Assembly: GCA_035544615.1 (NCBI GenBank)
Contig: DATKEA010000017.1
Coordinates: forward strand, 1,949-65,948
Direction of reading: 5' to 3'
Length of the DNA stretch: 64,000 nt
DNA from: Acidimicrobiia bacterium
GTDB lineage: Bacteria; Actinomycetota; Acidimicrobiia; Spongiisociales; ZC4RG35
The notes under the pieces: generated by a model
The model's input: only the letters and a program-made list of their open reading frames with translations
The model's database searches: none
Told to the model about the DNA's origin: nothing
Shown here: one piece after another, positions 4,162 to 61,212 of the stretch
Layout of the letters: the number at the start of each line of letters is the position of its first letter
Numbering within the stretch: the stretch's first letter is position 1
Program-made: the position numbers and the translations under genes

Positions 4162-4184
4162 CGTCAGCCACCGAAAGGTACGAC

Positions 4185-37152: not shown

Positions 37153-37164
37153 GGGAGAGGGAAG

Positions 37165-41078: not shown

Positions 41079-42078
41079 CCGTCCAGGTGCCCTGACTGGT
41101 AATCAGGGTGGACAGGTCGCCGTCACCCAGCTTCTCCTTGGCCGCCTCGATCTGGGCGTTCATCTGCGACTCGTATGTCGGCCGATGGACGTTGCGGAAG
41201 ATGCCAAGTGGGGTTGGCCCATAGGGCCCGTGAGACAGCCTGCTCAACGCGAACGCGACCGCCGCGTCGGGTCGGGTCGGGTCATGGACCAGGATCGCTC
41301 CCGGATCGACCGACGACGAGTCCACGATCGTGGCCGAGCCGTCGCGAAGGACGATCGCCTTGGCTCCCTCGTCGAAGACGACCGGCTTTCCGATCTCGAG
41401 GTCGATCCGGTTGTGTACCCGCTCTTCCTTGCCGGTCAGCTGGATGAATGCCTTGTCGTTGAACACATTGCAGTTCTGATAGATCTCGATGAAAGCCGAG
41501 CCTTCGTGCTCGTACGCCGCCTTGAGCAGCTCCTGGGTGTGGCCCCGATCCATGTCCAGGGTCCGGGCCACGAAGGTGGCCTCGGCGCCGAGGGCCAATG
41601 AAACCGGGTTGAACGGGTAGTCGATCGACCCGTAGGGCGAGGACTTGGTGGTCTTGCCCGGCTCCGACGTGGGGGAGTACTGGCCCTTGGTCAGCCCGTA
41701 GATCTGATTGTTGAACAGCAGCACCTTGAGGTTCACATTGCGACGAAGGGCATGGATGAGATGGTTCCCGCCAATGGAGAGGGCATCTCCGTCGCCGGTG
41801 ATCACCCAGACCGAGAGCTCCGGCCTGGTGGCGGCGATCCCCGACGCGATGGCCGGGGCACGCCCGTGAATCGAGTGCATGCCGTAGGTGTTCATGTAAT
41901 AGGGGAACCTCGCGGCGCAACCGATGCCCGACACGAAGACGAATTCCTCTCTGGGCCGTCCGAGACCGGCCAGAAACTGTTGGACCGAGGCCAGGATGGT
42001 GTAGTCGCCGCATCCGGGGCACCAACGCACTTCCTGATCTGTCTGAAAGTCGGCTCGGGTATAGCTCGGGGCGGTCAC
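41050..42078 (-). CDS. korB: 2-oxoglutarate:ferredoxin oxidoreductase subunit beta
   Basis: TPP-binding GDG motif (ITGDGDALSIGGNH) and the N-terminal Cys pair (WCPGCGD). Confidence 0.9.
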   Translation of the reverse strand: MTAPSYTRADFQTDQEVRWCPGCGDYTILASVQQFLAGLGRPREEFVFVSGIGCAARFPYYMNTYGMHSIHGRAPAIASGIAATRPELSVWVITGDGDALSIGGNHLIHALRRNVNLKVLLFNNQIYGLTKGQYSPTSEPGKTTKSSPYGSIDYPFNPVSLALGAEATFVARTLDMDRGHTQELLKAAYEHEGSAFIEIYQNCNVFNDKAFIQLTGKEERVHNRIDLEIGKPVVFDEGAKAIVLRDGSATIVDSSSVDPGAILVHDPTRPDAAVAFALSRLSHGPYGPTPLGIFRNVHRPTYESQMNAQIEAAKEKLGDGDLSTLITSQGTWTVKETSSNGG

Positions 42079-44057: not shown

Positions 44058-45359
44058 TCATGCACTACTCAAGCCCAATGGAGCAGGGGTGAATCCGACC
44101 ACTCCCGCATTCTCTAGAGATCTACCGAAGGCGATGAGACCTGTCTCTGAGCCGAGCGACCCAATGGCCTGAAGCGAGACCGCGGGATCACCTGAGCCGG
44201 TGACGGGCATGGCGATCGCCGGATGAAGCGAATGGTTGACAACAGCAGAGAACCAGGAGAGAACAGCTCGATAATGACGGTCGCCGATCATGTCGTTTCC
44301 AATCTCCTTACGGATTGCTGGTGAGGTTGGCGTGATCAACAGATCGACACGCTGGAAGGCCTCGGCGAATCGGTCGCGGATCATCCGTTGCCAGTCGATC
44401 CCGGCCTCGATCTCCCCGGAGGTGACTCGGGCGCAGTCATCGAGCCGCCTGGCCACGTCGTCGCCGTACGCCAAATCCTTCGCCCTGAACCCGGCGTGCA
44501 CCTCGTTTATCTCCCCGGCGATGGCATGGATCAACTGGGGGGCTGGCAAGACGTCCGGCATCTCGATCTCGCTGACCGAGTGACCCAGGCCACGGAGTGT
44601 CTCGATCGCGGCCTCGAACCCGACAGCAACCCTTTCTTCCATCGGTGCCCTGTCGAGCCACGGCTGGGGAACCCCGAGCCGGAGCCCGTTCGGGTGCGGC
44701 TCGTCCGTCTCGTCGTCGGACATCACCCGGTAGGCGACGTCGAGGCTCTCGATGGAGTCGGCGAGCGGGCCTACGGTGTCGACCGAGGCGGCGAGCGGGA
44801 AGACCCCCGCCAGGGGAATCCGTCCGTAGGTCACCTTGAGCCCGAAACAGGCGCAGAGCGCCGCCGGCACCCTGACCGAGCCACCGGTGTCGGTTCCGAT
44901 GCCTACCGGTGTGATCCCGGCGGCCACGGCCGCAGCCGACCCCCCCGACGAGCCGCCAGGCGAGGTGTTGGGATCCCACGGGTTGCGCACCGGCCCGTAG
45001 TGGGGGTTCTCCGATGAGAAGCCAAAGGCAAACTCGTGCAGACCGGTTCGGCCGATGATGACGGCACCGGCAGCCTCGAGTCGGTCGACAACCGGAGCGG
45101 ACTCGGTTGCCTGCTTGCGGTAGAACACCGAGCCGGCGGTAGTGGTGCGATCCGCGTGATCGATCAGGTCTTTGAGACCGATTGGCATCCCGCCCAGAGG
45201 CCCCGCGTACCCACCCCCGGCGAGGATGGAATCGATGTCCAGGGCCCGGGCCAGGGCACGGTCGTCATCCAGGTAGGTGAATGCGTTCAGGTTGCCCTGA
45301 GTGGCGTGGGCTGCATCGAGGGCATCTTGAACTCGGTTGACGGCTGATGCACCGGACAC
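44058..45359 (-). CDS. Amidase-signature family amidase
   Basis: GGSSGGSAAAVAAG signature region with the Ser-cisSer-Lys triad context. Confidence 0.8.
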   Translation of the reverse strand: MSGASAVNRVQDALDAAHATQGNLNAFTYLDDDRALARALDIDSILAGGGYAGPLGGMPIGLKDLIDHADRTTTAGSVFYRKQATESAPVVDRLEAAGAVIIGRTGLHEFAFGFSSENPHYGPVRNPWDPNTSPGGSSGGSAAAVAAGITPVGIGTDTGGSVRVPAALCACFGLKVTYGRIPLAGVFPLAASVDTVGPLADSIESLDVAYRVMSDDETDEPHPNGLRLGVPQPWLDRAPMEERVAVGFEAAIETLRGLGHSVSEIEMPDVLPAPQLIHAIAGEINEVHAGFRAKDLAYGDDVARRLDDCARVTSGEIEAGIDWQRMIRDRFAEAFQRVDLLITPTSPAIRKEIGNDMIGDRHYRAVLSWFSAVVNHSLHPAIAMPVTGSGDPAVSLQAIGSLGSETGLIAFGRSLENAGVVGFTPAPLGLSSA

Positions 45360-45430: not shown

Positions 45431-46537
45431 TCACTCGAAGGTGAGACCGTTGCCGTCGGGCACCAGCGAGATCCAGGCCTGACCGGGGGGAACCGGTATC
45501 ACATTGCCCGAGTCGTCGGTGAGTATGAACCAACCCTGCTCGGTTTCCCGTTGCCAGGTCCCGCTCATCACCTTGCCGTCGGCGAAGACGAAAGCCTGTC
45601 CGGACCCGGTCGTCCTGCTGCTCGGCAGGCTCTTGCCCCGTCCCGGTGGGGAGTGGTTGTACTGCTCGGTATAGAGGGCCACCAGAACCGGGAAGCCGAT
45701 GCGACCTTCCTCACCTTCCATGGTTCGCCAGTTCGACTCCTGTCCACCCGCGCTACGCAGCCAGGTCTCGGTGTCGGGGTCCCAGTCCCAGTTCACGATG
45801 TTGCCGACGAAGTTGATCTCGACGGTGGTCGCCGGCGTTGCGGTGGAGGGCAGCTCGCCAAATTCCCAGATGGGAGCGATCGGAGGCTCGTCGGGATACT
45901 CGAGACTGTCGGCGTACTCACGGAGCAGGATCGTGTTGGCGTACAGGTTGTGAGGGGCGAACCGCCCCGATACCCGGAATGTTTGAGGCCGGACCTCACC
46001 GACCAGGTTCACGTCCATCGACCGGATCAATTGCTGGACCCAGTTCTGAGCGCCGGAGATGACAAACGTGGGCTGGTTGAGAGCGGTCAGGATGTGGGGG
46101 TCGGTCGGTCGTCCGGAGCGCATCGGGCCGAAGTATTCGGTGTCGCTCTGCTGCCAAAGGGTCATGAAGCGGGTGATCCCTTCGACCACGATCTCGAAGA
46201 CGACGTCGGCTTCCTGGACGCCTGACTGGGGTCGGGCATTGGGATGGTTGTCCATCTTCACCGCCAGCACTCTCCGGTCGAGTAGCGCCGGGTCATCCAC
46301 GGGCAAGCCGTTGAGAGGGGAGACCGCTTCCGGAATAGTGCTGGATGTTGTGGTTGTGGTCTCGGCGGAGGTCGTCGTCGTCTCGACAATTGTGGTTGCC
46401 GTGGTCTCGGGGGCTTCGGGTGGGTCCTCGACAGCCAGCGCCATCACCACCCCCACCGCGGCGAGAAGGATGACGCCGATCGTGACCAGCTGTGCGCGTC
46501 TCGACTGCCGTAGCAGCTGGATGAATCTCGAAAGCAT
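45431..46537 (-). CDS. DUF3048 domain lipoprotein (YerB-like)
   Basis: N-terminal TM/signal, a Thr-rich linker, then the DUF3048 core (LAVKMDNHPNARPQSGVQEADVVFE). Confidence 0.55.
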   Translation of the reverse strand: MLSRFIQLLRQSRRAQLVTIGVILLAAVGVVMALAVEDPPEAPETTATTIVETTTTSAETTTTTSSTIPEAVSPLNGLPVDDPALLDRRVLAVKMDNHPNARPQSGVQEADVVFEIVVEGITRFMTLWQQSDTEYFGPMRSGRPTDPHILTALNQPTFVISGAQNWVQQLIRSMDVNLVGEVRPQTFRVSGRFAPHNLYANTILLREYADSLEYPDEPPIAPIWEFGELPSTATPATTVEINFVGNIVNWDWDPDTETWLRSAGGQESNWRTMEGEEGRIGFPVLVALYTEQYNHSPPGRGKSLPSSRTTGSGQAFVFADGKVMSGTWQRETEQGWFILTDDSGNVIPVPPGQAWISLVPDGNGLTFE

Positions 46538-47040: not shown

Positions 47041-47982
47041 TCAGGTGCTCGGATCGGCCGGCTCGACCCTTCCCCGCCTCATGAGGTAGGAGTGCCAGAT
47101 CACGCGTGCCGCGGTTGCTCGGATGGGTCGCCAGGGCGCGGACAGGAGCTCGAGCTCTCCCGCGTCCGGCACCGATGACATGCCGAGAACCTCGGCGGCC
47201 CCTACCTGGAGGGCGCGATCTCCCACCGGGAAGACATCGGGCAGCCCGAGCGCCGACAGCAGGTAGGCATCTGCGGTCCACGGCCCGATCCCCTTGATCG
47301 CCAGCAGTGCCTGACGCGCCCCGTGGGGTGCCTGTCCTATCAAACCCGCCAGGTCCAACTCGCCGGATCTCACCGCCCGTGCCAACCCCGTCAGATAGCC
47401 GGACTTCTGCCAAGTGACGCCGATGCCGCGGAGATCGGCTTCGGTGACCTCACTCATCCTCTCGGGAGTGATCACACCGAGAAGGCCGTGAAGTCGTCGG
47501 TACATCGCCGCGCCCGACTCGAGAGAGACCTGTTGCTCCAGGATCAACCAGACCAGTGTCGGGAATCCTGCCGGCCTGCGCCAGAAGGGGGGTACGCCAA
47601 ACTCTTCGACCACACGGCGAAATGTCGGTTCCTCCCCGATGAGGAGATGCGCCGACTCGATGAAGGTGGATTCGTCGAGTCGCTCGACTCGAGGCTCGAG
47701 GCTTTCCATCGGAACCGGGCCAAAGGAGGCCGAGTCCTCGACGCCGGCCACATGATTGTCGGAAACGACCCAGGCCTGGCCTTCGCCCATGGTGCCCTGC
47801 CCGTCGACCCGATCCCCAGGCCCCGCCACCAGCCGCTTCACCAACCAGAAGTCGTCGCGTCCCGGGTGGGGAAGAGCCACGACTTCGCCGACGAGTGGTG
47901 ACCGCGACCCAGTGGTGACGAACTCCTCACCGGGAACGAGGGTCGGCCTCATAGAGTCTTCGACAACACGGAACCTGCGCAT
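47041..47982 (-). CDS. Apparent in-frame fusion of an S26 peptidase (SodX-like, Ni-SOD maturation) with an HhH-GPD DNA-3-methyladenine glycosylase (AlkA/Mag-like)
   Basis: Residues ~1-100 carry S26 signal-peptidase-type motifs (VEDSMRPTL; WLVKRLVAGPGDRV; VSDNH..DSASFGPV). Residues ~110-313 carry the HhH-GPD fold (LILEQQVSLESGAAMYRRL ... AIKGIGPWTADAYLL ... FPVGDRAL). The gene is divergent from sodN with a 61 bp gap. Confidence 0.55.
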   Translation of the reverse strand: MRRFRVVEDSMRPTLVPGEEFVTTGSRSPLVGEVVALPHPGRDDFWLVKRLVAGPGDRVDGQGTMGEGQAWVVSDNHVAGVEDSASFGPVPMESLEPRVERLDESTFIESAHLLIGEEPTFRRVVEEFGVPPFWRRPAGFPTLVWLILEQQVSLESGAAMYRRLHGLLGVITPERMSEVTEADLRGIGVTWQKSGYLTGLARAVRSGELDLAGLIGQAPHGARQALLAIKGIGPWTADAYLLSALGLPDVFPVGDRALQVGAAEVLGMSSVPDAGELELLSAPWRPIRATAARVIWHSYLMRRGRVEPADPST

Positions 47983-50367: not shown

Positions 50368-51294
50368 TCATCGGGCCGTATTGACCCCGGCGACGGGCAC
50401 ATGGCGGCTGGAACGCTCGATCAGGACCACCCCACCGATGATGAGCACCGCACCGACGACGATGGCGACCGTCAGTCGCTCTCCCAGGAAGATCACGGCC
50501 AGCGTCACCGCGATCACCGGGACCACATAACCGGCGACGGCGAGCCGGGAGGCGAGGGTTACCTGGGCTGCGATCAGAAAAGCAGTGAACGGAACGGCGG
50601 TGGCCAGCACCCCAAGGGCGATGAGGAGGGCCCACTGCGATGTCTCGATCGAAGAGAGCGGGGTGGTGTCGAGGAAGGGCATCGCCAGCAGGACGAGGCC
50701 AGTGGCGCTGGCAAACTGGGGGATCACCAAACCGTCGCCACCGACATCGAGGGCGAAGCGGCGGCTCAGAGCACCTCCGACGCCGGCGAAGCAGACGGCG
50801 ATCAACGACAGGCCGACACCCCGCCACAAGTTGCCTACACCGTCCATGGAGCCACCTCCCACCCCCACCAGGACCCCGGTGCCGACGAGAGCGACGACCA
50901 GACCCGGTATCGACTGGGGGTTGAACCGCTCGTCAACCACCAAGAAATGCGCTCCTCCCACCGTGGCCGCGGGAATCAGAGCCACCAGGAGCCCGCCCAA
51001 GCTCACCGGAAGATCCTCCAGCCCCATGGTGAACAGGGTGTTGGGCAGCGCCAAGGCCACTCCGCCCAGAATGAAGCCCCTCACCCAGTGACGAGCATCG
51101 AGTCCCCGAAATCTCTTCCAGAACCGGGAGACGATCACCAGCACGACGAGAGCGAGGCCGAAACGCATCGGGACCACGGTGAACGTCGACACCCCACTGC
51201 CGAGGAGAGCCCGGGTGAGGACCGCCGCCGATCCCCACCCGAGGATGGCAGCCACGAGCGGGGTCCACGGATTCATGCCGGGGCGACGGTACAA
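50368..51294 (-). CDS. DMT-superfamily (EamA) transporter
   Basis: Ten TM helices arranged as two EamA repeats. Confidence 0.8.
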   Translation of the reverse strand: MYRRPGMNPWTPLVAAILGWGSAAVLTRALLGSGVSTFTVVPMRFGLALVVLVIVSRFWKRFRGLDARHWVRGFILGGVALALPNTLFTMGLEDLPVSLGGLLVALIPAATVGGAHFLVVDERFNPQSIPGLVVALVGTGVLVGVGGGSMDGVGNLWRGVGLSLIAVCFAGVGGALSRRFALDVGGDGLVIPQFASATGLVLLAMPFLDTTPLSSIETSQWALLIALGVLATAVPFTAFLIAAQVTLASRLAVAGYVVPVIAVTLAVIFLGERLTVAIVVGAVLIIGGVVLIERSSRHVPVAGVNTAR

Positions 51295-51350: not shown

Positions 51351-52457
51351 ATGACCAATCGTCTCCTCTCCCTCACCGCTGCGCTGATGCTGATTGTGGG
51401 TGCCTGCGGTGGGACAACCGAAGGCACCACCACCATCGGATCTGACACCACCACTACCACCCAGACCGAGACCACGGTCGCGGCCGTGACTCCCCAAGGT
51501 GTCCTGCTCTCCTACTCGCTGACCGCCGGCGACGAGTTCAGCTACGAAGTGGACCTGGATCAGCACATCGAGGTAAGCGCGTCGGGTGACGCCTCGCTGA
51601 TGGGAGACGAGGAGATGCCGGGCAATGCCGTGGTGGACCTGACCGGTTCCGCGACCTTCACCCACGTCGTGTCCGACGGGCCCGAAGCGGGCACATATGA
51701 GATTCACATAACCGGAGACTTCGCCGACGTGACGGTCACAGGCACCGTGGACGGCGAGCCTGTGGACTCCGACGAAGCACCCGACTTCGCCGCCCTGGAT
51801 CCGATCGACTTGACCATCGTCGTCGACGAGCAAGGCAAACTCATCCAGAAGGAAAGCGATATCGATGATCCTCTGGGTGGGCTCTTTGGAGATCTGGGTG
51901 CCCTGGGTGGCAGCAGTCCCGCTCCCGGTCTCGACCCGGGCCAATTCTTCGGTCCGTTGCTGTCAGACGACGAGGTCACCGTCGGTGATACCTGGTCGGA
52001 AGACATCGAGACGTCCGGCTTGTCCGAAGACAACTCGATCGTGACCAGTATCACCAGCACGGTTACCGACGTCGAGAACCTCGACGGGACAGAGGTGTTC
52101 GTCATCGAGAGCCAGTCTTCGACCTCGCGTATCGAGTTTGATCTGGGTGAGTTCTTCGCCGGCATGTTGGGGGCGTTCCTGCCCGAGGGGACCACCGAAG
52201 CAGAGTCGGCCGAGTTCGAGGAGATGCTCGCCCAACTCAAATTCCTGATGACCATCGACGACACCACATCCGATAGCACCACCTGGTTCGACGCCGAGGC
52301 TGGAATTGCCCGCCAATCGGAGGTCACCGCCGGCACCAGGATCACCATGGAGTTGAACATGCCTGACGAAGACACCGGCGAGATGGTCGGCTTCGACATG
52401 GACATGGCCCTCGATCAGGTCATCACCTATCGGTTGATCTCCGGGCCGCCCGCCTGA
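51351..52457 (+). CDS. Hypothetical lipoprotein
   Basis: Lipobox LIVGAC, a Thr-rich linker, then an acidic domain with no recognised motif. Confidence 0.5.
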   Translation: MTNRLLSLTAALMLIVGACGGTTEGTTTIGSDTTTTTQTETTVAAVTPQGVLLSYSLTAGDEFSYEVDLDQHIEVSASGDASLMGDEEMPGNAVVDLTGSATFTHVVSDGPEAGTYEIHITGDFADVTVTGTVDGEPVDSDEAPDFAALDPIDLTIVVDEQGKLIQKESDIDDPLGGLFGDLGALGGSSPAPGLDPGQFFGPLLSDDEVTVGDTWSEDIETSGLSEDNSIVTSITSTVTDVENLDGTEVFVIESQSSTSRIEFDLGEFFAGMLGAFLPEGTTEAESAEFEEMLAQLKFLMTIDDTTSDSTTWFDAEAGIARQSEVTAGTRITMELNMPDEDTGEMVGFDMDMALDQVITYRLISGPPA

Positions 52458-52458
52458 G

Positions 52459-53196
52459 TCACTTCTTGCGGCGGAGACCGGAGAGAGCGCTCCGCCACAA
52501 GTAGGCGGTGAAGCTGGGGATCGCCTCTTGTTCCCCGTGGGCCTGGTCGCCGACCGAGGCGGTCGCTTCGCCTTTCTGCGGTGCTTCGATCGAGCGTTCC
52601 CCAGCGGCGCGCATCTCAGCCAATCGCTCTCTGAGGAAGACCGCTTCGGTCTCGGCACGTGCCGCCCTCTCACGGGCTTCGGCCAGCTGCTGACCTGCCT
52701 CGTGGAGGTTGCCCAGTTGGAGCAGCATCTTGTCCCAGGCCGCGATGGGAACGATCATCGTGCCGGGAGGGGGAGTCATCTCAGCGGCCGGTTTCGATGT
52801 GACCACGCCGCGTGCGTCGGCCGTCTCGGGTGGTGGCCCTGCCGGCACGCTCTCCCGTCCCACTTGCGCGGCCCGCGCCCGCACCCCATCCAGGGTGACC
52901 AGGCGGCGAGTCCCGGTCGGTGTCTCGTCGAGAATGCTCGGGATCCGGCCTTTACTGGCCCACTTTCGCAGCGTGGCAATGGGGATCCCGGTTGCCGCAC
53001 TCGCTTGGCGAAGAGTCAGCCAACCCTGGCCCGAAACATGAAGGTCCCCGGCTTGGTCTTCACCGCTGGCGTTCGAGGATGGCTGGCGGGCCGGTGGTGG
53101 GGTTGCCGGGGTGCGAAGCGCCTCGGTCTCCCATAGAAAGGCAGCATCCTGATCAGCCATGTCGTCATCATAAGAACTCTCTGCCGGCGAGATCAT
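52459..53196 (-). CDS. Helix-turn-helix DNA-binding protein (excisionase/MerR-like HTH plus coiled coil), divergent from the BMC locus
   Basis: HTH LTLRQASAATGIPIATLRKWASKGRIP, a Pro-rich linker and a C-terminal coiled coil. Confidence 0.5.
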   Translation of the reverse strand: MISPAESSYDDDMADQDAAFLWETEALRTPATPPPARQPSSNASGEDQAGDLHVSGQGWLTLRQASAATGIPIATLRKWASKGRIPSILDETPTGTRRLVTLDGVRARAAQVGRESVPAGPPPETADARGVVTSKPAAEMTPPPGTMIVPIAAWDKMLLQLGNLHEAGQQLAEARERAARAETEAVFLRERLAEMRAAGERSIEAPQKGEATASVGDQAHGEQEAIPSFTAYLWRSALSGLRRKK

Positions 53197-53251
53197 GGGC
53201 CGTCCCCCATGTTCCTAGGATGGGCCGGGTGAGGAGGCCGCAACCAGCCAC

Positions 53252-53881
53252 ATGACATCGCCCGCCGGCCCGACATCCCCGACCGAACAGGAAGTCCGCA
53301 CCCTGGTCGAGAGTGTGCTCGACGGAGTCCTGGGCTCCGATTCCGATCGGCCGGGGCCGGATCCCGCCCCGCCGACGCCGGCCGGGGCCGACGAGGGAAT
53401 GCCGAAGGCGAAGATCGCGGTGGGTTCAGACCACGGCGGCTACCCGCTCAAGGAGAGACTGGCATTCAAGCTCCGAGAGACCGGCTACGAGATCGTCGAT
53501 TGCGGGACGGACTCGCACGATGCAGTCGACTATCCGGACTTTGCCCACGCCGTAGCCCGAGAGGTGAGCTCCGGATCCTGTCGCTACGGGATCGTGGTGG
53601 ACGGAGCCGGAATCGGTTCGGCCATGGTGGCCAACAAGGTGCCGGGAGTGCGTGCCGCCTTGTGCTACGACCTGTCGTCGGCCCGCAACAGCCGAGAACA
53701 CAACCACGCCAACGTGTTGACCCTGGGAGCCGGGTTGATCGGGGAGGCTCTCGCCTGGCAGATTGTCGAAGAGTGGCTTTCCGTCGAGTGGGGTGGTGGT
53801 CGACACGCCCGCCGGGTTGCCAAGATCGACAACGTGCAACGGCAATACTCCGGGTCCGGCGTGAGTCAGGATCACCATTGA
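53252..53881 (+). CDS. RpiB/LacAB-family sugar-phosphate isomerase with an N-terminal encapsulation-peptide-like extension (BMC cargo)
   Basis: The core [15 protein letters not shown]...[17 protein letters not shown]...GGRHARRV aligns by eye to RpiB. A ~50 aa N-terminal extension carries an amphipathic helix ([16 protein letters not shown]) then a Pro/Gly/Asp-rich linker. An alternative core start lies at 53399. Confidence 0.8.
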
Positions 53882-54711
53882 ATCGCGATGCGTTGGTCGA
53901 GGCGGTGACTCGGGAGGTGATCGCTGCCCTCTCGACTCGCTACGACGTGTGTGACACCGGCGAGAAGGTGCGCGAGGTCGTGGCCAACGGGGTCGACCGG
54001 GTCGCCTTTCACGGCGAGGCGGCCGAGGTGCCCCTGGACATGGCTCGATACATCGATCACACCCTGCTCAAGCCCGAGGCGACGGCTGCCGAGATCGACC
54101 AGCTTTGCCGCGAGGCCGCGCAGTACCGCTTCGCCTCGGTTTGCATCAATCCCACATGGGTGAAGCGCGCGGCGGAGAATCTTCGGGGCACCTCGGTCCC
54201 GGTATGCACCGTGATCGGCTTTCCCCTCGGCGCCGGCACATCGGAGATCAAAGCGATGGAAGCGCGGAGGGCACTCCGTGACGGCGCGCGGGAAGTCGAC
54301 ATGGTGCTCAACATCGGGGCGTTGAAGTCGGGTGACCACAGCCTGGTGCTGAAGGACATCGAGAAGGTTGTCGATGCCGCCCACGAGGTAGGTGCATTGT
54401 GCAAGGTGATCCTCGAGACCGCCCTGCTCACCGACGAGGAGAAAGTGGTCGCTTCGGCCCTCGCCAAGAAGGCCAAAGCGGACTTCGTCAAGACTTCGAC
54501 CGGTTTCGGCCCGGGAGGCGCAACCGTCTATGACGTGGCCCTGATGCGGGAGACAGTCGGGCCCGAGATGGGAGTGAAAGCCTCGGGCGGGGTTCGCACC
54601 ACCGATGACGCGGAGGACATGATCGCCGCCGGTGCTACCAGAATCGGTGCTTCGGCTGGGATCGAGATCGTAGGCGGCAAGGATGGAGGACAAGGTGACG
54701 AGAGGCATTGA
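53878..54711 (+). CDS. deoC: Deoxyribose-phosphate aldolase (DERA) with an N-terminal encapsulation-peptide-like helix (BMC cargo)
   Basis: The core [14 protein letters not shown]...FASVCINP...[10 protein letters not shown]...DMVLNIG...DFVKTSTGF...[10 protein letters not shown] matches class-I DERA. A ~55 aa extension begins [19 protein letters not shown]. The TTG start overlaps the rpiB stop. Confidence 0.8.
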
Positions 54712-55324
54712 GCTGAGGTCGTTTGCGTTCCTGGACAGCCTCCAGCCGCAATACGCAGCATTTCTCGGGACGGTGGCCCAGGGGTTCCTCCCGCTGGCCG
54801 GCGACTCGTCCCTGTGGGTGGAAGTGGCTCCAGGTATCGAGATCAATCGTCTGACCGACGTGGCTCTGAAGGCGACATCGGTCAAGCCGGGCCTCCAGAT
54901 CATCGAGCGCTTCTACGGCGTGCTCGAGGTTCACTCACCGGATCAGGCCGAGACCAGAGCCGCCGGGGCGGCAATCCTCGACGGCATCGAGCTGACCGAG
55001 CACGACCGGATCAAGCCGCGGATCTTGTCGTCCCAGATCATTCGCAGACTCGACGACCATCACGCTCAGCTCATCAACCGGACCCGGCACGGTCAGATGA
55101 TCATCCCGGGCCAGACCCTGTATGTCCTCGAGTGCGAGCCGGCCGCATATGCGTCACTTGCTGCCAACGAGGCGGAGAAGGCAGCGGAGATCAACGTCCT
55201 CGAGGTGCGAAGCTTCGGCTCGATGGGTCGGGTCTACCTGGGCGGAGAAGAGCAGGACATCGATGTCGGGTGGCAGGCAGCGGTGGGCGCTCTGGAAGGG
55301 CTCACCGGCCGTGATGCCGGCTGA
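54695..55324 (+). CDS. BMC-T shell protein, CcmP/CsoS1D type (tandem permuted BMC domains)
   Basis: [28 protein letters not shown]...GIEINR...[11 protein letters not shown]...[28 protein letters not shown] matches the recalled CcmP sequence closely. The GTG at 54695 lies 5 nt after a GGAGG. The ORF-track ATG is at 54683. Confidence 0.8.
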
Positions 55325-55373
55325 GTGAGGATCTGCTTGAGTCAACGACGAAGACAACGAAAGGAGGAGCTTC

Positions 55374-55676
55374 ATGGCTGAAGCTCTTGGCATGATCGAA
55401 ACTCGAAGCTTCTCGGCGATGGTCGAGGCGGCAGATGCGATGGTGAAAGCCGCCAAGGTGGAGCTCGTGGGCATGGAGAAGACCGGTGGTGGATATGTGA
55501 CGGCCGTCGTGCGTGGCGATGTGGCCGCGGTCAAGGCTGCCGTCGACGCCGGTGTCCGGGGAGCGGAGAAGGTGGGTGAGGTCATCTCGACCCATGTCAT
55601 CGCACGCCCACACGTCAACATCGACCTGGTTCTGCCGCTCGGTCGCCAGGACCAGGCGCAAGACGATCTCGGTTAG
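55374..55676 (+). CDS. BMC-H shell protein (PduA/EutM type hexamer)
   Basis: [33 protein letters not shown]... is the canonical single BMC (Pfam00936) domain. Confidence 0.9.
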
Positions 55677-55709
55677 CCCAGCCATCCGTGGGAGACAGGA
55701 GATAGGACC

Positions 55710-56021
55710 GTGCATCTAGGCAGGGTCGCCGGGACGCTGGTCGCCAGTCGCAAGGAATCCCTCATGGAGGGGATGGTGTTCCTCGTCGTGCGTCAACTCG
55801 ACTCAGAGAACGCCGAGACGGGGAGCTATGTGGTGGCGGTCGATACGGTCGGTGCCGGTGTTGGCGAAGTCGTGCTCTACGCCTCGGGCAGCTCGGCGCG
55901 TCAAACGGAATCGACCCGCGACCGACCGGTGGATGCGGTGATCATGGCCATCGTCGACTCCTGGGATGTCGGTGGAGAGGTCCGGTACCACAAGGGTGAC
56001 GAAGAGGCATCGAGCAGGTAG
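55710..56021 (+). CDS. BMC-P vertex protein (EutN/CcmL/PduN family), paralogue 1
   Basis: [15 protein letters not shown]...[22 protein letters not shown]...AVIMAIVD is the EutN_CcmL fold. Confidence 0.85.
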
Positions 56022-56023
56022 CG

Positions 56024-57481
56024 ATGCTGAGCGACACAGATATCCAGGCCATAATCGAGCGGGTCAGGGGCCGGGTCGCCACAGCCGAGACAAACCGACG
56101 GGCGGCTCCGGCTTTGCGTGCCTCCGACGACCTCGCCGTGTCCGATGTCCAGCTCGGGGACGGCATCCATCCTTCCGTCGACGATGCGGTGGCGGCGGCT
56201 GGCACCGCCTTTCTCGAATACCGCGAGATGGGGCTCGAATCGCGCAAGTCGATCGTCGAGGCCATGCGAGCCGCGATGTTGCGGGAGGGGGAGCGACTCG
56301 GGTACATGGCGGCTGAGGAGACCGGCATCGGGAGGGGTGAGGACAAGGCGATCAAGAACCGCCTGGTAACCACCAAGACCCCGGGGCCCGAAGACCTCGA
56401 GCCACAGGTGGTGACCGGTGACGCCGGCATGATGGTCACCGAATACGCCCCTTACGGAGTGATCGGTTCGATCACTCCGACGACAAACCCCACATCCACG
56501 ATCATCAACAATTCGATCGCCATCGTGTCGGCGGGCAATGCGGTGGTCTTCAACGTCCATCCCAACGCCCGGTTGGTATCGGTCGAGAATGTCCAGCTTC
56601 TCAACAGGGCCATCGTCGGGGCGGGGGGCCCGCCGGATCTGGTAACTGCGATACCTCAGCCAACACTGGAGTCCGCGCGCCAATTGATGCAACATCCCGA
56701 CGTTCGCGTGCTCCTGGTCACCGGCGGCCCCGGTGTGGTCAAAGAGGCGCTCAAGACCAGCAAGAAAGCGATAACCGCCGGGCCCGGCAATCCGCCGGCG
56801 GTGGTCGACCAAACCGCCGACATCGACAACGCGGGCCGCGCCATCGTCAGGGGAGCGTCCTTCGACAACAACGTCATCTGCACCGACGAGAAAACCACGA
56901 TCGTGGTCGACACCGTCGCCGACCGTCTGGTGCAGGCGATGATCGCCGCCGGCGCCTACCGGCTCAAGGAGCACGAGCTGAAGCGTCTGGAGCGGGTGAT
57001 ATTCAAGGAGATGGGACCCCCCGGTAAACCGGGAATGATCAACACCGACTGGATCGGCAAGGACGCGGCGAGGATCCTCTCCGAGATCGGGGTCACAGTG
57101 GGGGACGAGGTGAGGCTGGTCGTGGCCGAGGTCCGTCGCGAGCACAACCTGGTCTGGACCGAGCAGATGATGCCGGTGATGCCGGTGGTCCGGGTGAGCA
57201 ATGTCGAGGATGCCATCGACCTCGCGGTTCGCTCCGAGCACGGGTTCCGACACACCGCTTCGATCCACAGCACCAATGTGGAGACGATCACACGCATGGC
57301 CCGCGCGATGAACTGCAGCATTTTCGTGGCCAATGGGTCCAACTTCAACGGCCTCGGAGAAGGAGGCGAAGGCTTCACCTCGTTCTCGATCGCCAGCCCT
57401 ACCGGGGAGGGAATGACCCGGCCGCGTACTTTCTCCAGGGTGCGCCGGGTGACGGTGGTCGGAGCTCTGCGAATTGTCTGA
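56024..57481 (+). CDS. CoA-acylating aldehyde dehydrogenase (PduP/EutE-like) with an N-terminal encapsulation peptide (BMC cargo)
   Basis: N-terminal MLSDTDIQAIIERVRGRV amphipathic helix, a ~30 aa linker, then the AldDH core (GIHPSVDDAVAAAGTAF ... ITPTTNPTST ... catalytic Cys region NNVICTDEKT). Confidence 0.85.
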   Translation: MLSDTDIQAIIERVRGRVATAETNRRAAPALRASDDLAVSDVQLGDGIHPSVDDAVAAAGTAFLEYREMGLESRKSIVEAMRAAMLREGERLGYMAAEETGIGRGEDKAIKNRLVTTKTPGPEDLEPQVVTGDAGMMVTEYAPYGVIGSITPTTNPTSTIINNSIAIVSAGNAVVFNVHPNARLVSVENVQLLNRAIVGAGGPPDLVTAIPQPTLESARQLMQHPDVRVLLVTGGPGVVKEALKTSKKAITAGPGNPPAVVDQTADIDNAGRAIVRGASFDNNVICTDEKTTIVVDTVADRLVQAMIAAGAYRLKEHELKRLERVIFKEMGPPGKPGMINTDWIGKDAARILSEIGVTVGDEVRLVVAEVRREHNLVWTEQMMPVMPVVRVSNVEDAIDLAVRSEHGFRHTASIHSTNVETITRMARAMNCSIFVANGSNFNGLGEGGEGFTSFSIASPTGEGMTRPRTFSRVRRVTVVGALRIV

Positions 57482-58076
57482 CGGAGCGCAGGCGGTCGCC
57501 CTATTCGAGTTTGGCTCGATCAGCGCGGGGATCGTCGCCGGTGATGCAATGGTCAAGGCCTCTCCGCTGGGAGCCATCTATGCCGGAACCGTGCACCCCG
57601 GCAAGTATCTCGTGTTGGTCACCGGAGACACGGCCAGTGTCGCCATGGCTGTCGATGTCGGGAACGATGTGGGGCGGGAGGCGGTAAGCGACGTTGTGTT
57701 CCTCGCCGATATCCACCCGTCCGTTCCCCAGGCGATTCGGGGCAATAGCGCCCGGGCGCCGGTGGGTGACGAGGCTCTCGGCGTCGTGGAAACCTCTTCG
57801 GTGGCCGCGGCCGTGGACGCCGCCGACGCCGGGGTCAAGGCTGCCGACGCCCGGCTCGCCGCCATCAGACTGGGCGACGGTTTGGGGGGAAAGGGCTATG
57901 TCCTGTTCACCGGGATGGTGGCGGAGGTCGAGGCGTCGTTGGAGGCGGCGGTGGCCCGCGCCGAAGGTCACGGGACGCTGGTGCGCTCCGATCTGATTGC
58001 GCAGCTTCACGAGGAGATGGCTGACAACCTGCGCGCTGACCTCAATTTCATGAACCGGGTCTCCGGGAGTCGATGA
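57474..58076 (+). CDS. BMC-T shell protein, PduT-like (tandem canonical BMC domains)
   Basis: Two BMC repeats (ALFEFGSISAGIVAGDAMVKAS...; ALGVVETSSVAAAVDAADAGVKAADARL...). The PduT Fe-S Cys position is His here (HPGKY). Confidence 0.75.
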   Translation: MSDGAQAVALFEFGSISAGIVAGDAMVKASPLGAIYAGTVHPGKYLVLVTGDTASVAMAVDVGNDVGREAVSDVVFLADIHPSVPQAIRGNSARAPVGDEALGVVETSSVAAAVDAADAGVKAADARLAAIRLGDGLGGKGYVLFTGMVAEVEASLEAAVARAEGHGTLVRSDLIAQLHEEMADNLRADLNFMNRVSGSR

Positions 58077-58077
58077 G

Positions 58078-58356
58078 ATGCAACTGGGCCGTGTCCTAGG
58101 AAGCGTCGTCGCCACCAAGAAGTCCCCGGGTCTGGAGGGAGTCCGGCTTCTCATCGTCCAGCCTCTCGACAAGACCCAGCAGCCAAAGGGCGAGAGCGTG
58201 GTCGCTGCCGACGCAGTGTCCATGGCCGGCCCCGGCGAACTTGTGTACTTCGTTGCCTCGCGGGAGGCGGCCGAGGCTCTGCCCGAGCGGTTCGTGCCGG
58301 TCGACCACGCCGTGGTGGGCATCGTCGATCAGATTCACCTGGAATCCGGCCGATGA
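58078..58356 (+). CDS. BMC-P vertex protein, paralogue 2
   Basis: MQLGRVLGSVVATKK...AADAVSMAGPGELVYFVASREA...VVGIVD. Confidence 0.85.
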   Translation: MQLGRVLGSVVATKKSPGLEGVRLLIVQPLDKTQQPKGESVVAADAVSMAGPGELVYFVASREAAEALPERFVPVDHAVVGIVDQIHLESGR

Positions 58357-58640
58357 AGGTGGGTCGGGTTGCGGGGACTGTCGTGTCCACGATCAAGGTT
58401 CCGGTTCTCGACGACCACCGGCTCCTTCTCTGCGATATCGAGGACCTGAAGGGAAGTTCGGTGGGCTACACCATCGCCGTCGACGTGGTCGATGCCGGCG
58501 TGGGCGACAAGGTGCTCATCCTCGACGAGGGCAGCTCGGCCCGTCAGATCCTCGGCCTCGAATGGGGTGCGATCCGGGCAGTGGTGGTGGGCATCGTCGA
58601 TCAGTTGGTCGTGGAGGGCGCGGTGCGGGGGCTCGACTAG
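58353..58640 (+). CDS. BMC-P vertex protein, paralogue 3
   Basis: MKVGRVAGTVVSTIK...AVDVVDAGVGDKVLILDEGSSAR...VVVGIVD. Overlaps the preceding BMC-P (ATGA). Confidence 0.85.
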   Translation: MKVGRVAGTVVSTIKVPVLDDHRLLLCDIEDLKGSSVGYTIAVDVVDAGVGDKVLILDEGSSARQILGLEWGAIRAVVVGIVDQLVVEGAVRGLD

Positions 58641-58842
58641 CGGAAATGTTTCGCCAAGTGCGGAGCTTCGGTTTGAAACCCGGAATAGCGGGTAAGAGCG
58701 CCGACCCGATCAACACACCTTGAATTGACACCGATCAGAATTGCCGGGGCGGATCAGGGAGAAGCTCCTCCCTCCATCAGTGAGCTACGAGCCCTCACGC
58801 CGCCCGATCCGCCCCGGCGATCAACGTCGGATCGGGCCGGCC

Positions 58843-59385
58843 ATGCAAGACCATGACTTCCGTGCCCATCTCCGTGCCGCCCGTGCCGGGGATGAGCCTG
58901 CCTGGTGGGCCCTTTATCACTGGCTCGCTCCTCAGGTTCTCGGGTTTCTCCGTGGCAGCCGGATTCCCGACCCCGAAGACGTCCTCGGTGAGGTCTTCCT
59001 CGAGGTGGCTCGCCGAATCGATCGATTTCGGGGCGACGCGCGAGGGTTCAGGGCTTGGGTGTTCACCATTACACGGGCGCGTCGCGTCGACGAGATTCGG
59101 CGGCGCGTCCGGCGTCGGGAAGACCCGCTCGACACCGGGTCTCACGATCTGTTGCCCGCTCCCCTCGATGTCGAGGCCGAGGCGCTCGCCATGGTCGGGC
59201 TGGAAGAGTTGATCGGCCTTCTCGACCAACTCACCGACGATCAGAGCGAAGTGCTGGTATTGCGGGCTATCGGTGGTTGGACAGCTCGTGAGGTGGGAGA
59301 GATCACCGGTCGTAGCACCGGATCCGTGGAGCAACTGCAACACCGGGCGACCCGGGCGCTGAGAGAGCTTCTCGACGAGGCGTAA
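58843..59385 (+). CDS. ECF-subfamily RNA polymerase sigma-70 factor
   Basis: Region 2 (FRAHLRAARAGDEPAWWALYHWLAPQVLGFL ... DVLGEVFLEVARRIDRF) and region 4 HTH (EVLVLRAIGGWTAREVGEITGRSTGSVEQLQHRATRALR). The ORF-track start at 58741 is probably too long. Confidence 0.75.
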   Translation: MQDHDFRAHLRAARAGDEPAWWALYHWLAPQVLGFLRGSRIPDPEDVLGEVFLEVARRIDRFRGDARGFRAWVFTITRARRVDEIRRRVRRREDPLDTGSHDLLPAPLDVEAEALAMVGLEELIGLLDQLTDDQSEVLVLRAIGGWTAREVGEITGRSTGSVEQLQHRATRALRELLDEA

Positions 59386-59415
59386 GGAAATCGTTGGCTG
59401 GATCGATCCCTTGTC

Positions 59416-60312
59416 ATGCGTCAGCCAGGGCCGAGCCGCGACTCCGAAGCCTTCCTATCGGCTCTGGCTGACGAACTCTTTGCGTCCCCTGACCAATTGA
59501 CCGCTCAGCGCCACGTAAAGGCTGCGGCCCGTGCTGCTGAAACGGAGCGGCAGATGAGACACTTTCGGCTCACTCGTTGGGCGGCTGCCACGGTGGCGAT
59601 CACCACGCTGTTCGGCACTGGCGGCATTGCCGTCGCCGGCGGGCTCCCTCGCCCGATTCAGTCAGTGGTAGCCGACATGGCCCGCGCCCTGCCCCTTCCC
59701 ATCGATGTTCCGTACCCCGCGGCGGTTGATCGCCTCGTCGTCAACGGTGATGCGGCCGCCCGCGATCGAAATCCCGAGGACGCCGAAGTCGAAATCGACT
59801 CCTACCAGCCGGCGCCAGACGCGCCGGTCGCCCCCTCTGTCCCGCCTGTCGACGGCGAAGTTGTGCCGGCAAGCAGCGGAGACCGCGACCTCGATCAGCC
59901 TCCGGCCAGGGTGCGAGAAGGTGATCGCTGTGACTTGTCAGAGATCGAGAAGGATCGGGGCCGGCTCGACCGTGACGAGATCAAGGAGCTTCGTATCGAG
60001 CTACGCCTGCTGTGCGGGCTCGAGCTATTCGATCCCCCGCGATGGGCCCACGATGGACGGTCATCCGACCCGGGTCAGGACGACGCCGATGAGGTTCAGA
60101 CAAGTCACCAGGACCAGGACCGCGACCGCGATCGGGGGGATCGGGATCGGGATCGGGACCGGGCACGCGATCGGAGCGGAGATCCTGATTCGTCCGATTC
60201 GGAGCGCTCAGGCGAAACGAAGGAGAGGACAGACGACAAAGTGGAGGAGCGACCCGATGACGGGAGCACCGATCGGTCGTCGGCCGGTGGCTGGCGTGAC
60301 CGCCACGACTGA
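59416..60312 (+). CDS. Putative anti-sigma factor (single TM) with an Asp/Arg-rich low-complexity C-terminal tail
   Basis: Immediately downstream of the ECF sigma gene. TM segment WAAATVAITTLFGTGGIAVAG. The tail is DQDRDRDRGDRDRDRDRARDR. Confidence 0.4.
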   Translation: MRQPGPSRDSEAFLSALADELFASPDQLTAQRHVKAAARAAETERQMRHFRLTRWAAATVAITTLFGTGGIAVAGGLPRPIQSVVADMARALPLPIDVPYPAAVDRLVVNGDAAARDRNPEDAEVEIDSYQPAPDAPVAPSVPPVDGEVVPASSGDRDLDQPPARVREGDRCDLSEIEKDRGRLDRDEIKELRIELRLLCGLELFDPPRWAHDGRSSDPGQDDADEVQTSHQDQDRDRDRGDRDRDRDRARDRSGDPDSSDSERSGETKERTDDKVEERPDDGSTDRSSAGGWRDRHD

Positions 60313-60333: not shown

Positions 60334-61212
60334 ATGGAAATGACATTTCGAGAACGCAAGAGCACCCTGATCGCCTGCTTGACGCTGGCGACTGTGGTTG
60401 CTCTGCCCAGCATGGCGCTGGCCGAGGACGACAAGACGACGCCGACCGAAACCGGGACGACGGACTCGGCGGCAACCGGCGCGGATCATCAAGTCTCCGA
60501 GGTCCTGACCACTCTGCCCGTGCTCGGAACCGGGCTGAGCCTGACCATCACCAGGGACGAGACCGGTGCGATCGCCTCCGTTGGCCTCGATCCTGCCGAT
60601 GCAGCCACCGTCATCAAAGAGAAGGACCACAAGGTTGTCTTCCTTCTCAGCGACGAGGACACCGTGGTGGTGGTCAAGGCGCGTGGCGGGTCGGTTCGGA
60701 CCAAGGTCAAGGCGGATGCGACCGCCGACGTGACCGGTCCCGGTTCCTGGTCGGCCGACGTCTTCGGCAACGGGATCGTGACCATTCCCTACACCGTTAC
60801 CTTCGACGGGATCACACCCACCATCACAATCGGTGAGGTGATCGCGCCCGATGGGGTCATCGCCGAGGTGGATGAGGCGAAGACACGGACCTCCGACGAC
60901 GGCGACAAGTCCTTCTACAAAGTGAAGGTCAAGCTGACCTCGGATGACGAGCGGGCCAAGGTCACGTTCGTGGCCAAGGTCTCGGTCAACGACGAAGGCG
61001 AGAGCAAGGTTCGCCTGGCCGTGGACCTCAAGTCATATGACAGATTCAAGGACCGCGATGACGATCGACGTGACCAGCGGGACCGCCATGATGACGACGA
61101 CGATCGACGTCGCGACAAGAGCGACCGCGACGACGACAAGCGCGGTGACCACCGGGACCGCGACAAGGACCGCGACGATGACGACGACAACGACGACAAC
61201 GGTGAGACTTGA
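60334..61212 (+). CDS. Secreted hypothetical protein with a highly charged Asp/Arg-rich C-terminal tail
   Basis: Signal peptide (LIACLTLATVVALPSMALA), a beta-rich middle, then ~60 aa of D/R/K/H low complexity. Confidence 0.4.
   Translation: MEMTFRERKSTLIACLTLATVVALPSMALAEDDKTTPTETGTTDSAATGADHQVSEVLTTLPVLGTGLSLTITRDETGAIASVGLDPADAATVIKEKDHKVVFLLSDEDTVVVVKARGGSVRTKVKADATADVTGPGSWSADVFGNGIVTIPYTVTFDGITPTITIGEVIAPDGVIAEVDEAKTRTSDDGDKSFYKVKVKLTSDDERAKVTFVAKVSVNDEGESKVRLAVDLKSYDRFKDRDDDRRDQRDRHDDDDDRRRDKSDRDDDKRGDHRDRDKDRDDDDDNDDNGET

Follow-up and report, generated by a model that had tools for sequence, protein, structure and literature searches.

A predicted SPU3-type microcompartment operon for deoxyribose-5-phosphate breakdown in an Acidimicrobiia bacterium

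A 64 kb stretch of genomic DNA from an Acidimicrobiia bacterium (contig DATKEA010000017.1, positions 1,949 to 65,948 of the forward strand; hereafter the window) carries nine co-directional open reading frames (ORFs) on the plus strand at positions 53252-58640. These encode an RpiB-like protein, a deoxyribose-phosphate aldolase (DERA), an aldehyde dehydrogenase (AldDH) and six shell proteins of a bacterial microcompartment (BMC), comprising one BMC-H, one BMC-T^dp, one BMC-T^s and three BMC-P. The locus is likely to specify a metabolosome of the SPU3 subtype within the sugar-phosphate-utilising (SPU) class, with the predicted task of breaking down deoxyribose-5-phosphate, because it agrees point by point with the published description of SPU3. 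An initial annotation, made from the letters of the sequence, had proposed a complete nine-gene SPU locus with this enzyme trio and this shell count (one H, two T and three P), and its inventory is borne out, as each ORF lies where it had been placed and profile searches with BMC, EutN, DeoC, RpiB and Aldedh models match all nine, shell and enzyme ORFs alike, to the expected families.

The SPU class was catalogued in 2014 and 2021, and the more recent survey describes over 280 loci in 26 phyla and seven subtypes (Sutter 2021, Nat Commun). SPU3 accounts for 31 loci in 12 phyla, Actinobacteria included (Sutter 2021, Supplementary Data 2). In the published description, these loci combine an AldDH with PF02502 and PF01791 proteins, the PF02502 gene standing first and the AldDH and the aldolase having N-terminal encapsulation peptides (EPs), while the shell consists of a single BMC-H, a BMC-P triplet, a CcmP-like BMC-T^dp, and a BMC-T^s that has neither a PduS partner nor a pore cysteine (Sutter 2021). 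The suggestion of the initial annotation that the locus represents a novel system does not hold up against this description, since the system is already catalogued as SPU3, Actinobacteria included, and is partly characterised biochemically via the SPU6 subtype. Similarly, the claim that SPU metabolosomes have only been predicted bioinformatically has been overtaken by the in vitro activity of the SPU6 DERA reported in 2024. The Actinobacteria SPU3 BMC-T^dp of the 2021 catalogue is A0A1F2Y269, a ccmP-like protein of 210 aa from 'unclassified-Actinobacteria RBG_16_68_12' (Sutter 2021). It is not among the top 120 homologues listed for the BMC-T^dp of the window, and neither 'Acidimicrobi' nor 'Ilumatobacter' occurs in the supplements of the survey.

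Organization of the locus

The genes follow the order RpiB, DERA, T^dp, H, P, AldDH, T^s, P, P, and neighbouring genes are separated by gaps of 1, 2, 33 or 49 nt or overlap by 29, 8 or 4 nt (Table 1). The TTG start of the DERA gene overlaps the rpiB stop in the string ATTGA, and the start of the last BMC-P gene overlaps the stop of the preceding one by 4 nt. The unit reaches beyond these nine genes, with a divergent helix-turn-helix (HTH) gene upstream and a terminator-like hairpin downstream. PF00936 hexamer and trimer genes are clustered with PF03319 pentamer genes, as expected of a BMC locus, and the presence of an aldehyde-producing signature enzyme (DERA) together with a CoA-acylating AldDH is typical of a metabolosome. 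Membership in the SPU class is indicated by a PF01791 DERA that has the Asp/Lys/Lys residues and an N-terminal extension and is adjoined by a PF02502 protein with a Cys-to-Asp replacement. The SPU3 subtype is indicated by the CcmP-like BMC-T^dp, the single BMC-H and a BMC-T^s that has no pore cysteine and no accompanying PduS homologue; a PduS-type protein (Complex1_51K) found no match among the 67 window ORFs scanned. PTAC (PF06130), alcohol dehydrogenase (PF00465) and triose-phosphate isomerase (PF00121) likewise had no match among the window ORFs scanned, a set that does not cover every small ORF.

Table 1. Positions in the window of the operon genes and of the associated regulatory features
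Feature	Position	Strand	Evidence
RpiB/LacAB-family protein, 209 aa	53252-53881	+	PF02502, 6.7e-53, residues 55-192
Class I DERA, 277 aa, TTG start	53878-54711	+	TIGR00126 deoC, 287.7 bits (cutoff 117.3)
BMC-T^dp, 213 aa, CcmP-like tandem permuted BMC	54683-55324	+	NF053796 CcmP, 339.8 bits (cutoff 340)
BMC-H, sole hexamer	55374-55676	+	PF00936, 6.5e-30; KAAKV and ARPH interface motifs
BMC-P no. 1, apart from the adjacent pair	55710-56021	+	PF03319, 1.3e-28, full-length
CoA-acylating AldDH, 485 aa	56024-57481	+	PRK15398, 614.7 bits (cutoff 403)
BMC-T^s, PduT-like, two BMC domains	57474-58076	+	PF00936, 7.2e-29
BMC-P no. 2, first of the adjacent pair	58078-58356	+	PF03319, 9.4e-27
BMC-P no. 3, second of the adjacent pair	58353-58640	+	PF03319, 1.1e-18
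Candidate divergent HTH regulator	52459-53196	-	MerR, 6.7e-5, and HTH_17, 3.4e-4, both below the gathering score
-10-like hexamer TATGAT	53167-53172	-	Precedes the HTH gene's Met13 ATG by 6 nt
CCTAGGAT motif, palindrome CCTAGG overlapping -10-like TAGGAT	53214-53221	+	Comparative alignment
Ribosome-binding site GAGGAGG	53231-53237	+	Between the CCTAGGATG block and the rpiB ATG
Terminator-like hairpin with T-rich tail	58648-58666	+	8 nt after the last gene

The aldolase and the aldehyde dehydrogenase

The aldolase matches the solved DERA structure 8QPS with an E-value of 1.1e-82 over residues 53-270, and it is about 65-70% identical to the DERAs in the PDB. The catalytic residues D141 (in EVDMV), K205 (the Schiff-base lysine, in VKTSTG) and K234 (the second lysine, in VKASGG) are invariant in 70 orthologues. 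In addition, the protein has a highly conserved N-terminal extension of about 54 aa, which matches the helix-plus-strands extension that has been described on all SPU DERAs (Dwyer, Sutter & Kerfeld 2024, Commun Biol, PMC11585597). The same work showed that the SPU6 enzyme is active on deoxyribose-5-phosphate in vitro (Dwyer 2024, PMC11585597).

The AldDH is of the CoA-acylating type and matches the Rhodopseudomonas palustris BMC aldehyde dehydrogenase 5JFL with an E-value of 7e-125 over residues 23-484. Its catalytic Cys286 (in NNVICTDEK) is invariant in 79 orthologues, and its N-terminus forms a partly conserved, EP-like helix, DIQAIIERVRGRV, followed by a variable linker that reaches to about residue 45.

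N-terminal extensions are thus present on all three cargo proteins, with lengths of about 53, 54 and 45 aa on the RpiB-like protein, DERA and AldDH, respectively. They are missing from the PDB homologues, as the alignments begin at query residue 53 for both the RpiB-like protein and DERA, and at residues 23 and 47 for the closest AldDH structures. On the RpiB-like protein, an amphipathic helix at residues ~12-27 (hydrophobic moment 0.57, rank 3 of 195 windows) is followed by a Pro-rich linker to about residue 53; the linker is unconserved, and the whole extension varies between 46 and 63 aa among the orthologues. This combination of helix and linker is typical of an encapsulation peptide.

The RpiB-like protein

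The RpiB-like protein passes the NCBI rpiB equivalog cutoff (149.1 bits against 138.65), and it lacks the catalytic base expected for EC 5.3.1.6, since its DGAGIGS segment has Asp117 for Cys and Ala119 for Thr/Ser. When it is aligned to C. thermocellum RpiB, VDGAGIG falls on ICGTGLG, such that Asp117 takes the place of the catalytic cysteine and Ala119 that of the threonine, and both residues are invariant in 69 orthologues. The same is true for the whole pocket, as all ten positions examined (D60, H61, Y94, D117, A119, H150, N151, R184, H185 and R188) are invariant in these 69 proteins, even though only 36% of the domain columns are invariant and the orthologues range down to 66% domain identity. 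Ser123 presumably occupies the position of the M. tuberculosis RpiB glutamate, five residues downstream. Furthermore, 2-deoxyribose-5-phosphate does not have the C2 hydroxyl that is needed for aldose-ketose isomerisation.

The Asp-for-Cys replacement is shared by all SPU ribose-5-phosphate isomerase homologues (RPIs), and the SPU6 RPI that has been assayed had negligible ribose-5-phosphate isomerase activity and formed a ~1:1 complex with DERA (Dwyer 2024, PMC11585597). Formation of this complex gave no gain in DERA kinetics, and RPI is missing from SPU5 and from many SPU4 loci (Dwyer 2024, PMC11585597). Isomerisation of a sugar phosphate as the first step, which the initial annotation had implied, is therefore unsupported, because the motif is altered, the SPU6 RPI is inactive on ribose-5-phosphate and the presumed substrate has no C2 hydroxyl. 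The RpiB-like protein is most likely not a ribose-5-phosphate isomerase, and by analogy with SPU6 it would probably serve as a partner of DERA or as a subunit that organises or packs the core. It probably still binds a sugar phosphate, because full invariance of the pocket is more than a role in packing alone would demand.

The invariance of the pocket also feeds the most serious rival to a plain deoxyribose-5-phosphate pathway, namely that the Asp117/Ala119 paralogue handles some sugar phosphate besides ribose-5-phosphate, either as a catalytically active isomerase or as a subunit that opens the ring or delivers the substrate. Full conservation of ten pocket positions in a domain of which about a third of the columns are invariant speaks in favour of it. 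The aspartate could act as a general base, similarly to the glutamate of M. tuberculosis RpiB. The substrate ranges of the RpiB family are broad, and Dwyer 2024 (PMC11585597) explicitly left this possibility open. What speaks against it is that the SPU6 RPI had negligible activity on ribose-5-phosphate and did not improve the kinetics of DERA, that the aldolase of the window is an unambiguous DERA equivalog (Table 1) whose acetaldehyde product suits the AldDH clade, and that the absence of RPI from SPU5 and many SPU4 loci means that it is not essential to the core chemistry. An active paralogue is compatible with the SPU3 assignment, yet we regard it as unlikely, and equally unlikely that the physiological substrate of SPU3 is, as it would imply, not deoxyribose-5-phosphate or not this sugar phosphate only. 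The RpiB-like protein as a non-isomerase partner of DERA is thus the reading that we retain.

No second rpiB or deoC lies within the 64 kb window, and the initial annotation had considered that this copy might be the only rpiB of the genome. However, 16 more distant relatives (L042, L048-L050, L052-L054, L066, L067, L069, L071-L074, L078 and L079) carry a second, canonical rpiB, with the Cys-Gly-Ser-Gly motif and no extension, a few kb downstream of the operon and on the opposite strand, as exemplified by L042:16150-16593 on the minus strand. This gene is often found near a 6-phosphogluconolactonase-family gene, an alpha/beta hydrolase, a NUDIX-histidine phosphatase fusion and a polyphosphate kinase. 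The BMC copy is therefore a specialised paralogue and not a housekeeping gene, which answers the refuting condition that the initial annotation had set.

The same evidence bears on the proposal that the three enzymes are unencapsulated cytosolic housekeeping copies that merely happen to stand beside shell genes. The score of the RpiB-like protein above the rpiB cutoff, the 65-70% identity of the aldolase to DERAs from outside BMCs and the lack of a second rpiB or deoC in the window would be in line with it. Nevertheless, all three proteins bear N-terminal extensions that the solved homologues do not have, the RpiB-like protein is without the catalytic cysteine, a separate canonical rpiB is present nearby in the 16 related genomes, and the enzyme genes are interleaved with the shell genes in a fixed order in all 80 related genomes examined. 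Taken together, housekeeping copies are extremely improbable, and encapsulated, BMC-dedicated enzymes are the preferred interpretation.

The shell proteins

The sole hexamer of the locus, BMC-H, is 82-99% identical across 80 related loci, and the three BMC-P proteins are mutually 37-41% identical.

The BMC-T^dp scores just 22 bits on PF00936, which is weak because its BMC domains are permuted, and it falls 0.2 bits below the cutoff of the CcmP model. In the PDB it matches CcmP (4HT5) with an E-value of 1.2e-84 over 205 residues, the Haliangium ochraceum BMC-T structures 5V76 (2e-71) and 5V74 (2e-70), and CsoS1D (3F56) with 5.6e-54. A Glu-Arg pair is present, as IIERFY is aligned to FIERLY, which contains E69 and R70 of CcmP; these we take to be the gating residues. 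The protein is predicted to be a trimer of the double-stacking type with a gated pore, and it is a candidate conduit for sugar phosphates, CoA and NAD. In a metagenome protein collection, its homologues amount to at least 7,890 clusters at 90% identity with E-values of 1e-60 or below. The top 120 of them are 85-92% identical to it and are all metagenome or metagenome-assembled genome (MAG) proteins, most of which are unnamed or recorded as 'hypothetical protein'.

The BMC-T^s matches PduT structures with an E-value of 6e-31, and its TVHPGK segment aligns to PVCPGK of 3NWG. The protein does not contain any cysteine, and His41 occupies the position of the pore cysteine that binds the Fe-S cluster in PduT. 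This histidine is present in 77 of 79 orthologues and is replaced by Gln in the other two. Three His41 residues facing the pore of the trimer might create a metal site or act as a selectivity filter, and the triad in this cysteine-free pore might represent a previously undescribed metal-binding or gated conduit; no description of a pore histidine of BMC-T^s was found in the literature.

Proposed mechanism

By homology, BMC-H would make the facets of the shell and the three distinct BMC-P proteins would cap its vertices, with BMC-T^s and BMC-T^dp inserted in the facets. The N-terminal extensions, consisting of an amphipathic helix and a variable linker, are expected to target the three cargo proteins to the lumen. 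2-Deoxyribose-5-phosphate derived from the breakdown of DNA or deoxynucleosides might enter through the BMC-H pore or the gated BMC-T^dp, and DERA, in complex with the RpiB-like protein, would cleave it into glyceraldehyde-3-phosphate plus acetaldehyde. Whereas glyceraldehyde-3-phosphate would leave for glycolysis, the confined acetaldehyde would be converted by AldDH, together with CoA and NAD+, to acetyl-CoA and NADH. Acetyl-CoA/CoA and NADH/NAD+ would then be exchanged with the cytosol, most plausibly through the large BMC-T^dp pore. Exchange across the shell is proposed because the locus is without PTAC, alcohol dehydrogenase and PduS, and SPU operons without PTAC typically encode a BMC-T^dp (Dwyer 2024, PMC11585597).

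Several points weigh against this picture. The biochemistry of the SPU class is confined to the SPU6 enzymes from a Chloroflexi MAG (Dwyer 2024, PMC11585597), and cofactor recycling is not accounted for by the locus itself. The genes deoA, deoB and deoD, nucleases and nucleoside transporters were not found in the 64 kb window or in the conserved flanks of the relatives. Finally, the invariance of every canonical sugar-phosphate-binding residue of the RpiB-like protein hints at a ligand or a reaction that has not been recognised.

A different physiological role would follow if the pathway ran in reverse, with AldDH serving as a sink for NADH by reducing acetyl-CoA to acetaldehyde, and with DERA condensing aldehydes with glyceraldehyde-3-phosphate into a storage sugar phosphate. 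Both reactions are reversible in principle, which counts for this proposal. The same enzyme pair has been so interpreted for SPU-type loci of Atribacteria (Nobu 2016, as reported in PMC6281690), but that proposal concerned strict anaerobes with a syntrophic, fermentative way of life. The genes of the window for a cytochrome P450, an F1Fo ATP synthase and the oxygen-dependent ring oxygenase paaABCDE point to an aerobic heterotroph, for which such a sink has no obvious use, and neither an alcohol dehydrogenase nor an aldehyde:ferredoxin oxidoreductase gene accompanies the locus. Reverse operation thus appears very unlikely, and the breakdown of deoxyribose-5-phosphate in the catabolic direction is preferred.

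Distribution and genome context

Relatives of the locus were collected with AldDH as the query and one genome per GTDB species, which yielded at least 554 relatives, of which the best 80 were compared. These are 74-99% identical in AldDH and come nearly all from Acidimicrobiia MAGs, with a few records labelled otherwise. The closest is L001 (Acidimicrobiia bacterium SMAG_U2920), with 99% identity and with collinearity to the window over all 15 genes compared, and the window therefore derives from this species or from one very near to it. The order of the nine genes is unchanged in 80 of 80 loci, and each contig has every gene of the operon that it covers. The initial annotation had called the system a rare accessory organelle in Actinomycetota, a view that is contradicted by these 80 or more species-level genomes, nearly all from Acidimicrobiia, which have the same operon, and by the core chromosomal setting of the operon in the window. 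Across a sizeable clade of Acidimicrobiia, the operon is conserved as a chromosomal trait.

A recently acquired horizontal island is rejected in view of the uniform GC content of the window (0.62-0.65 throughout) and of its core genes, which include MetRS, the F1Fo ATP synthase operon, Rho, RF1, SHMT and PRPP synthetase. The window also holds paaABCDE, a 2-oxoacid:ferredoxin oxidoreductase, Ku/LigD and a cytochrome P450. The conserved flanks of the relatives reflect lineage-specific housekeeping synteny, with genes for an EamA-family protein, a lipoprotein, MetRS, 6-phosphogluconolactonase, an alpha/beta hydrolase, the NUDIX-HisPhos fusion, PPK1 and the canonical rpiB. Neither the window nor the flanks of the 80 relatives yielded pta/ack or adh genes as conserved neighbours.

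Regulation and operon ends

The divergent HTH protein is likely to be a local regulator of the operon. Its N-terminal part is weakly MerR/HTH_17-like, its helical C-terminal segment (residues ~145-195) is at least 98% conserved, and no relative of it was found in the PDB. Of the 70 related loci that reach rpiB, about 62 have a homologue that is placed divergently in the same way, while the exceptions carry other upstream regulators, for instance an extracytoplasmic function (ECF) sigma/anti-sigma pair or a LacI-type protein. Alignments to relatives of the HTH protein begin at query residues 7-13, and its true start is probably Met13 (ATG at 53160), which would widen the intergenic region between the HTH gene and rpiB from 55 nt, as annotated, to 91 nt.

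The conservation of motifs in this region was assessed by aligning 28 such regions from related loci. The plus-strand block CATCATAAGAAC, which contains the -10-like TATGAT on the minus strand, is conserved across them, and this hexamer may represent the promoter of a leaderless HTH transcript, in an arrangement as in actinobacterial leaderless promoters. The CCTAGGATG block is conserved at 80% or more, and the CCTAGGAT motif is a candidate promoter and/or operator of the operon. A sigma-70 consensus scan of positions 52400-59500 found no promoter, and Rfam matched no riboswitch or other RNA near the locus, the two tRNAs that it detected lying elsewhere in the window. Downstream of the operon, the hairpin is a weak consensus match, as five such sites occur in the region against 2.9 expected, and it is its position that is suggestive of a terminator.

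Neighbouring genes

The HTH gene is adjoined on its far side by a gene for a predicted lipoprotein of 368 aa (51351-52457), which has no Pfam match and features a signal peptide with a cysteine and a Thr-rich linker, and an EamA-family transporter gene lies further upstream at 50368-51294 on the minus strand. These two genes hold their position in about 21-26 of the related loci, which may reflect either synteny within the lineage or a functional tie, for example in metabolite export.

Directly downstream of the BMC operon, an ECF sigma factor gene (58741-59385) is followed by two ORFs, 59416-60312 and 60334-61212, which have no Pfam match and each end in a long tail of low complexity that is rich in Asp and Arg (DRDRDRGDRDRDRDR and RDDDRRDQRDRHDDDDDRRRDK). 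The first of the two occupies the position expected of an anti-sigma factor. This trio is kept only in the closest relatives L001, L007, L009 and L015, while the contig of L008 reaches the sigma gene only. In L059 and L062, by contrast, the operon is preceded by an unrelated ECF sigma/anti-sigma pair.

Elsewhere in the window, positions 36208-39793 hold a phenylacetate-CoA oxygenase cluster composed of paaA, paaB, paaC, paaD and a gene for a paaE-like reductase that has FAD, NAD and 2Fe-2S domains; the cluster suggests that aromatic compounds are catabolised aerobically. A two-subunit 2-oxoacid:ferredoxin oxidoreductase (POR_N/POR and a TPP-binding subunit) is encoded on the minus strand at 41050-43955, adjoined by genes for an amidase (44058-45359) and a DUF3048 protein (45431-46537). 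A non-homologous end-joining pair is formed by a LigD-like ATP-dependent DNA ligase (10154-11095, plus strand) and Ku (11157-11957, minus strand). The longest ORF of a GlmU-like gene, 4026-5573 with TTG at 4026, overlaps a tRNA on the same strand (4090-4161; Rfam, 58 bits), and the real start of the gene therefore lies downstream of the tRNA; a second tRNA is at 13852-13923 on the minus strand. Finally, the ORF at 47041-47982 (minus strand, 313 aa) combines a signal peptidase S26 match at residues 4-60 with an HhH-GPD base-excision-repair domain at residues 144-284, and represents an uncommon fusion unless the ORF has been called too long and spans two separate genes.

Significance

SPU metabolosomes are among the most widespread metabolosome types, and to their description the present analysis adds the size and uniformity of the Acidimicrobiia clade, a dedicated candidate HTH regulator whose upstream motifs are conserved, an RpiB-like protein with an invariant ligand pocket, and the conserved histidine at the pore position of BMC-T^s. 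The conserved operon supports a role for Acidimicrobiia, which are abundant in soil and sediment, in the recycling of DNA-derived sugar. Furthermore, the compact nine-gene SPU3 operon offers a small and uniform gene set for shell engineering. The invariant ligand pocket is comparative evidence that the RpiB-like protein binds something, and if the paralogue were active, the SPU3 organelle would process a substrate or perform a step that nobody has assigned.

Some caution is also warranted in annotation, as public records usually list the BMC-T^dp as 'hypothetical protein', and automatic naming would turn the RpiB-like protein into rpiB. The model scores of these two proteins are likely sources of mis- or under-annotation of such loci, and, judged by its residues, the RpiB-like protein should not be filed as a functional RpiB.

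Comparison with known systems

The locus shares with SPU3 (Sutter 2021) the AldDH, PF02502 and PF01791 proteins with PF02502 upstream, the N-terminal EPs on AldDH and DERA, the CcmP-like BMC-T^dp, the BMC-T^s without a PduS partner or pore cysteine, and the absence of PTAC. In contrast to the 12-20 SPU3 loci in which RpiB and DERA are fused, the two are encoded here by separate, overlapping genes. The RpiB-like protein also bears a clear EP-like helix and linker, the operon has its own conserved divergent candidate HTH regulator, and the Acidimicrobiia clade, with at least 80 species-level genomes, exceeds the entire SPU3 set of 2021.

The sole biochemically studied SPU system is SPU6 of Chloroflexi bacterium GWB2_54_36 (Dwyer, Sutter & Kerfeld 2024, PMC11585597). 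Common features are the N-terminal extension and Asp/Lys/Lys residues of DERA, the Cys-to-Asp replacement and N-terminal EP of RPI, the acylating AldDH, the BMC-P triplet and the BMC-T^dp. However, the SPU6 AldDH belongs to a different branch and has a C-terminal EP, its BMC-T^dp is of a different (blue) clade, and no BMC-T^s is present in the locus as listed by Dwyer 2024. The SPU6 regulator is a GntR/UTRA protein, whereas an HTH protein is found here.

The BMC of Haliangium ochraceum, a model shell, resembles the locus in its BMC-P triplet, its closely related BMC-T^dp and its AldDH with an N-terminal EP. Its main locus is without a PF02502 protein and usually without DERA, and a Haliangium ochraceum-type BMC is ruled out because PF02502 and PF01791 both lie inside the operon. 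As for the beta-carboxysome, the likeness is limited to the alignment of BMC-T^dp with CcmP (4HT5, 5LSR) and to the Glu-Arg pore pair; the context of RuBisCO, carbonic anhydrase, CcmM/N and CcmK is missing, and the trimer scores below the CcmP equivalog cutoff. A carboxysome is ruled out, as only the CcmP-like trimer is alike and RuBisCO, carbonic anhydrase/CcmM and CcmK were not found among the window ORFs scanned.

Lastly, the 'archaeal microcompartments' of Hodarchaeales (bioRxiv 2025.11.08.687404) differ in features that are absent from the locus described here, namely DERA-flavoprotein fusions, PTAC, an electron conduit of MNdh/PduS and T^s, and BMC-P proteins with DNA-binding tails. Nevertheless, they share with the Acidimicrobiia operon an SPU-type core of DERA and AldDH and a shell with H, T^s and P proteins, and catabolism of deoxyribose-5-phosphate has been proposed for them as well (bioRxiv 2025.11.08.687404).

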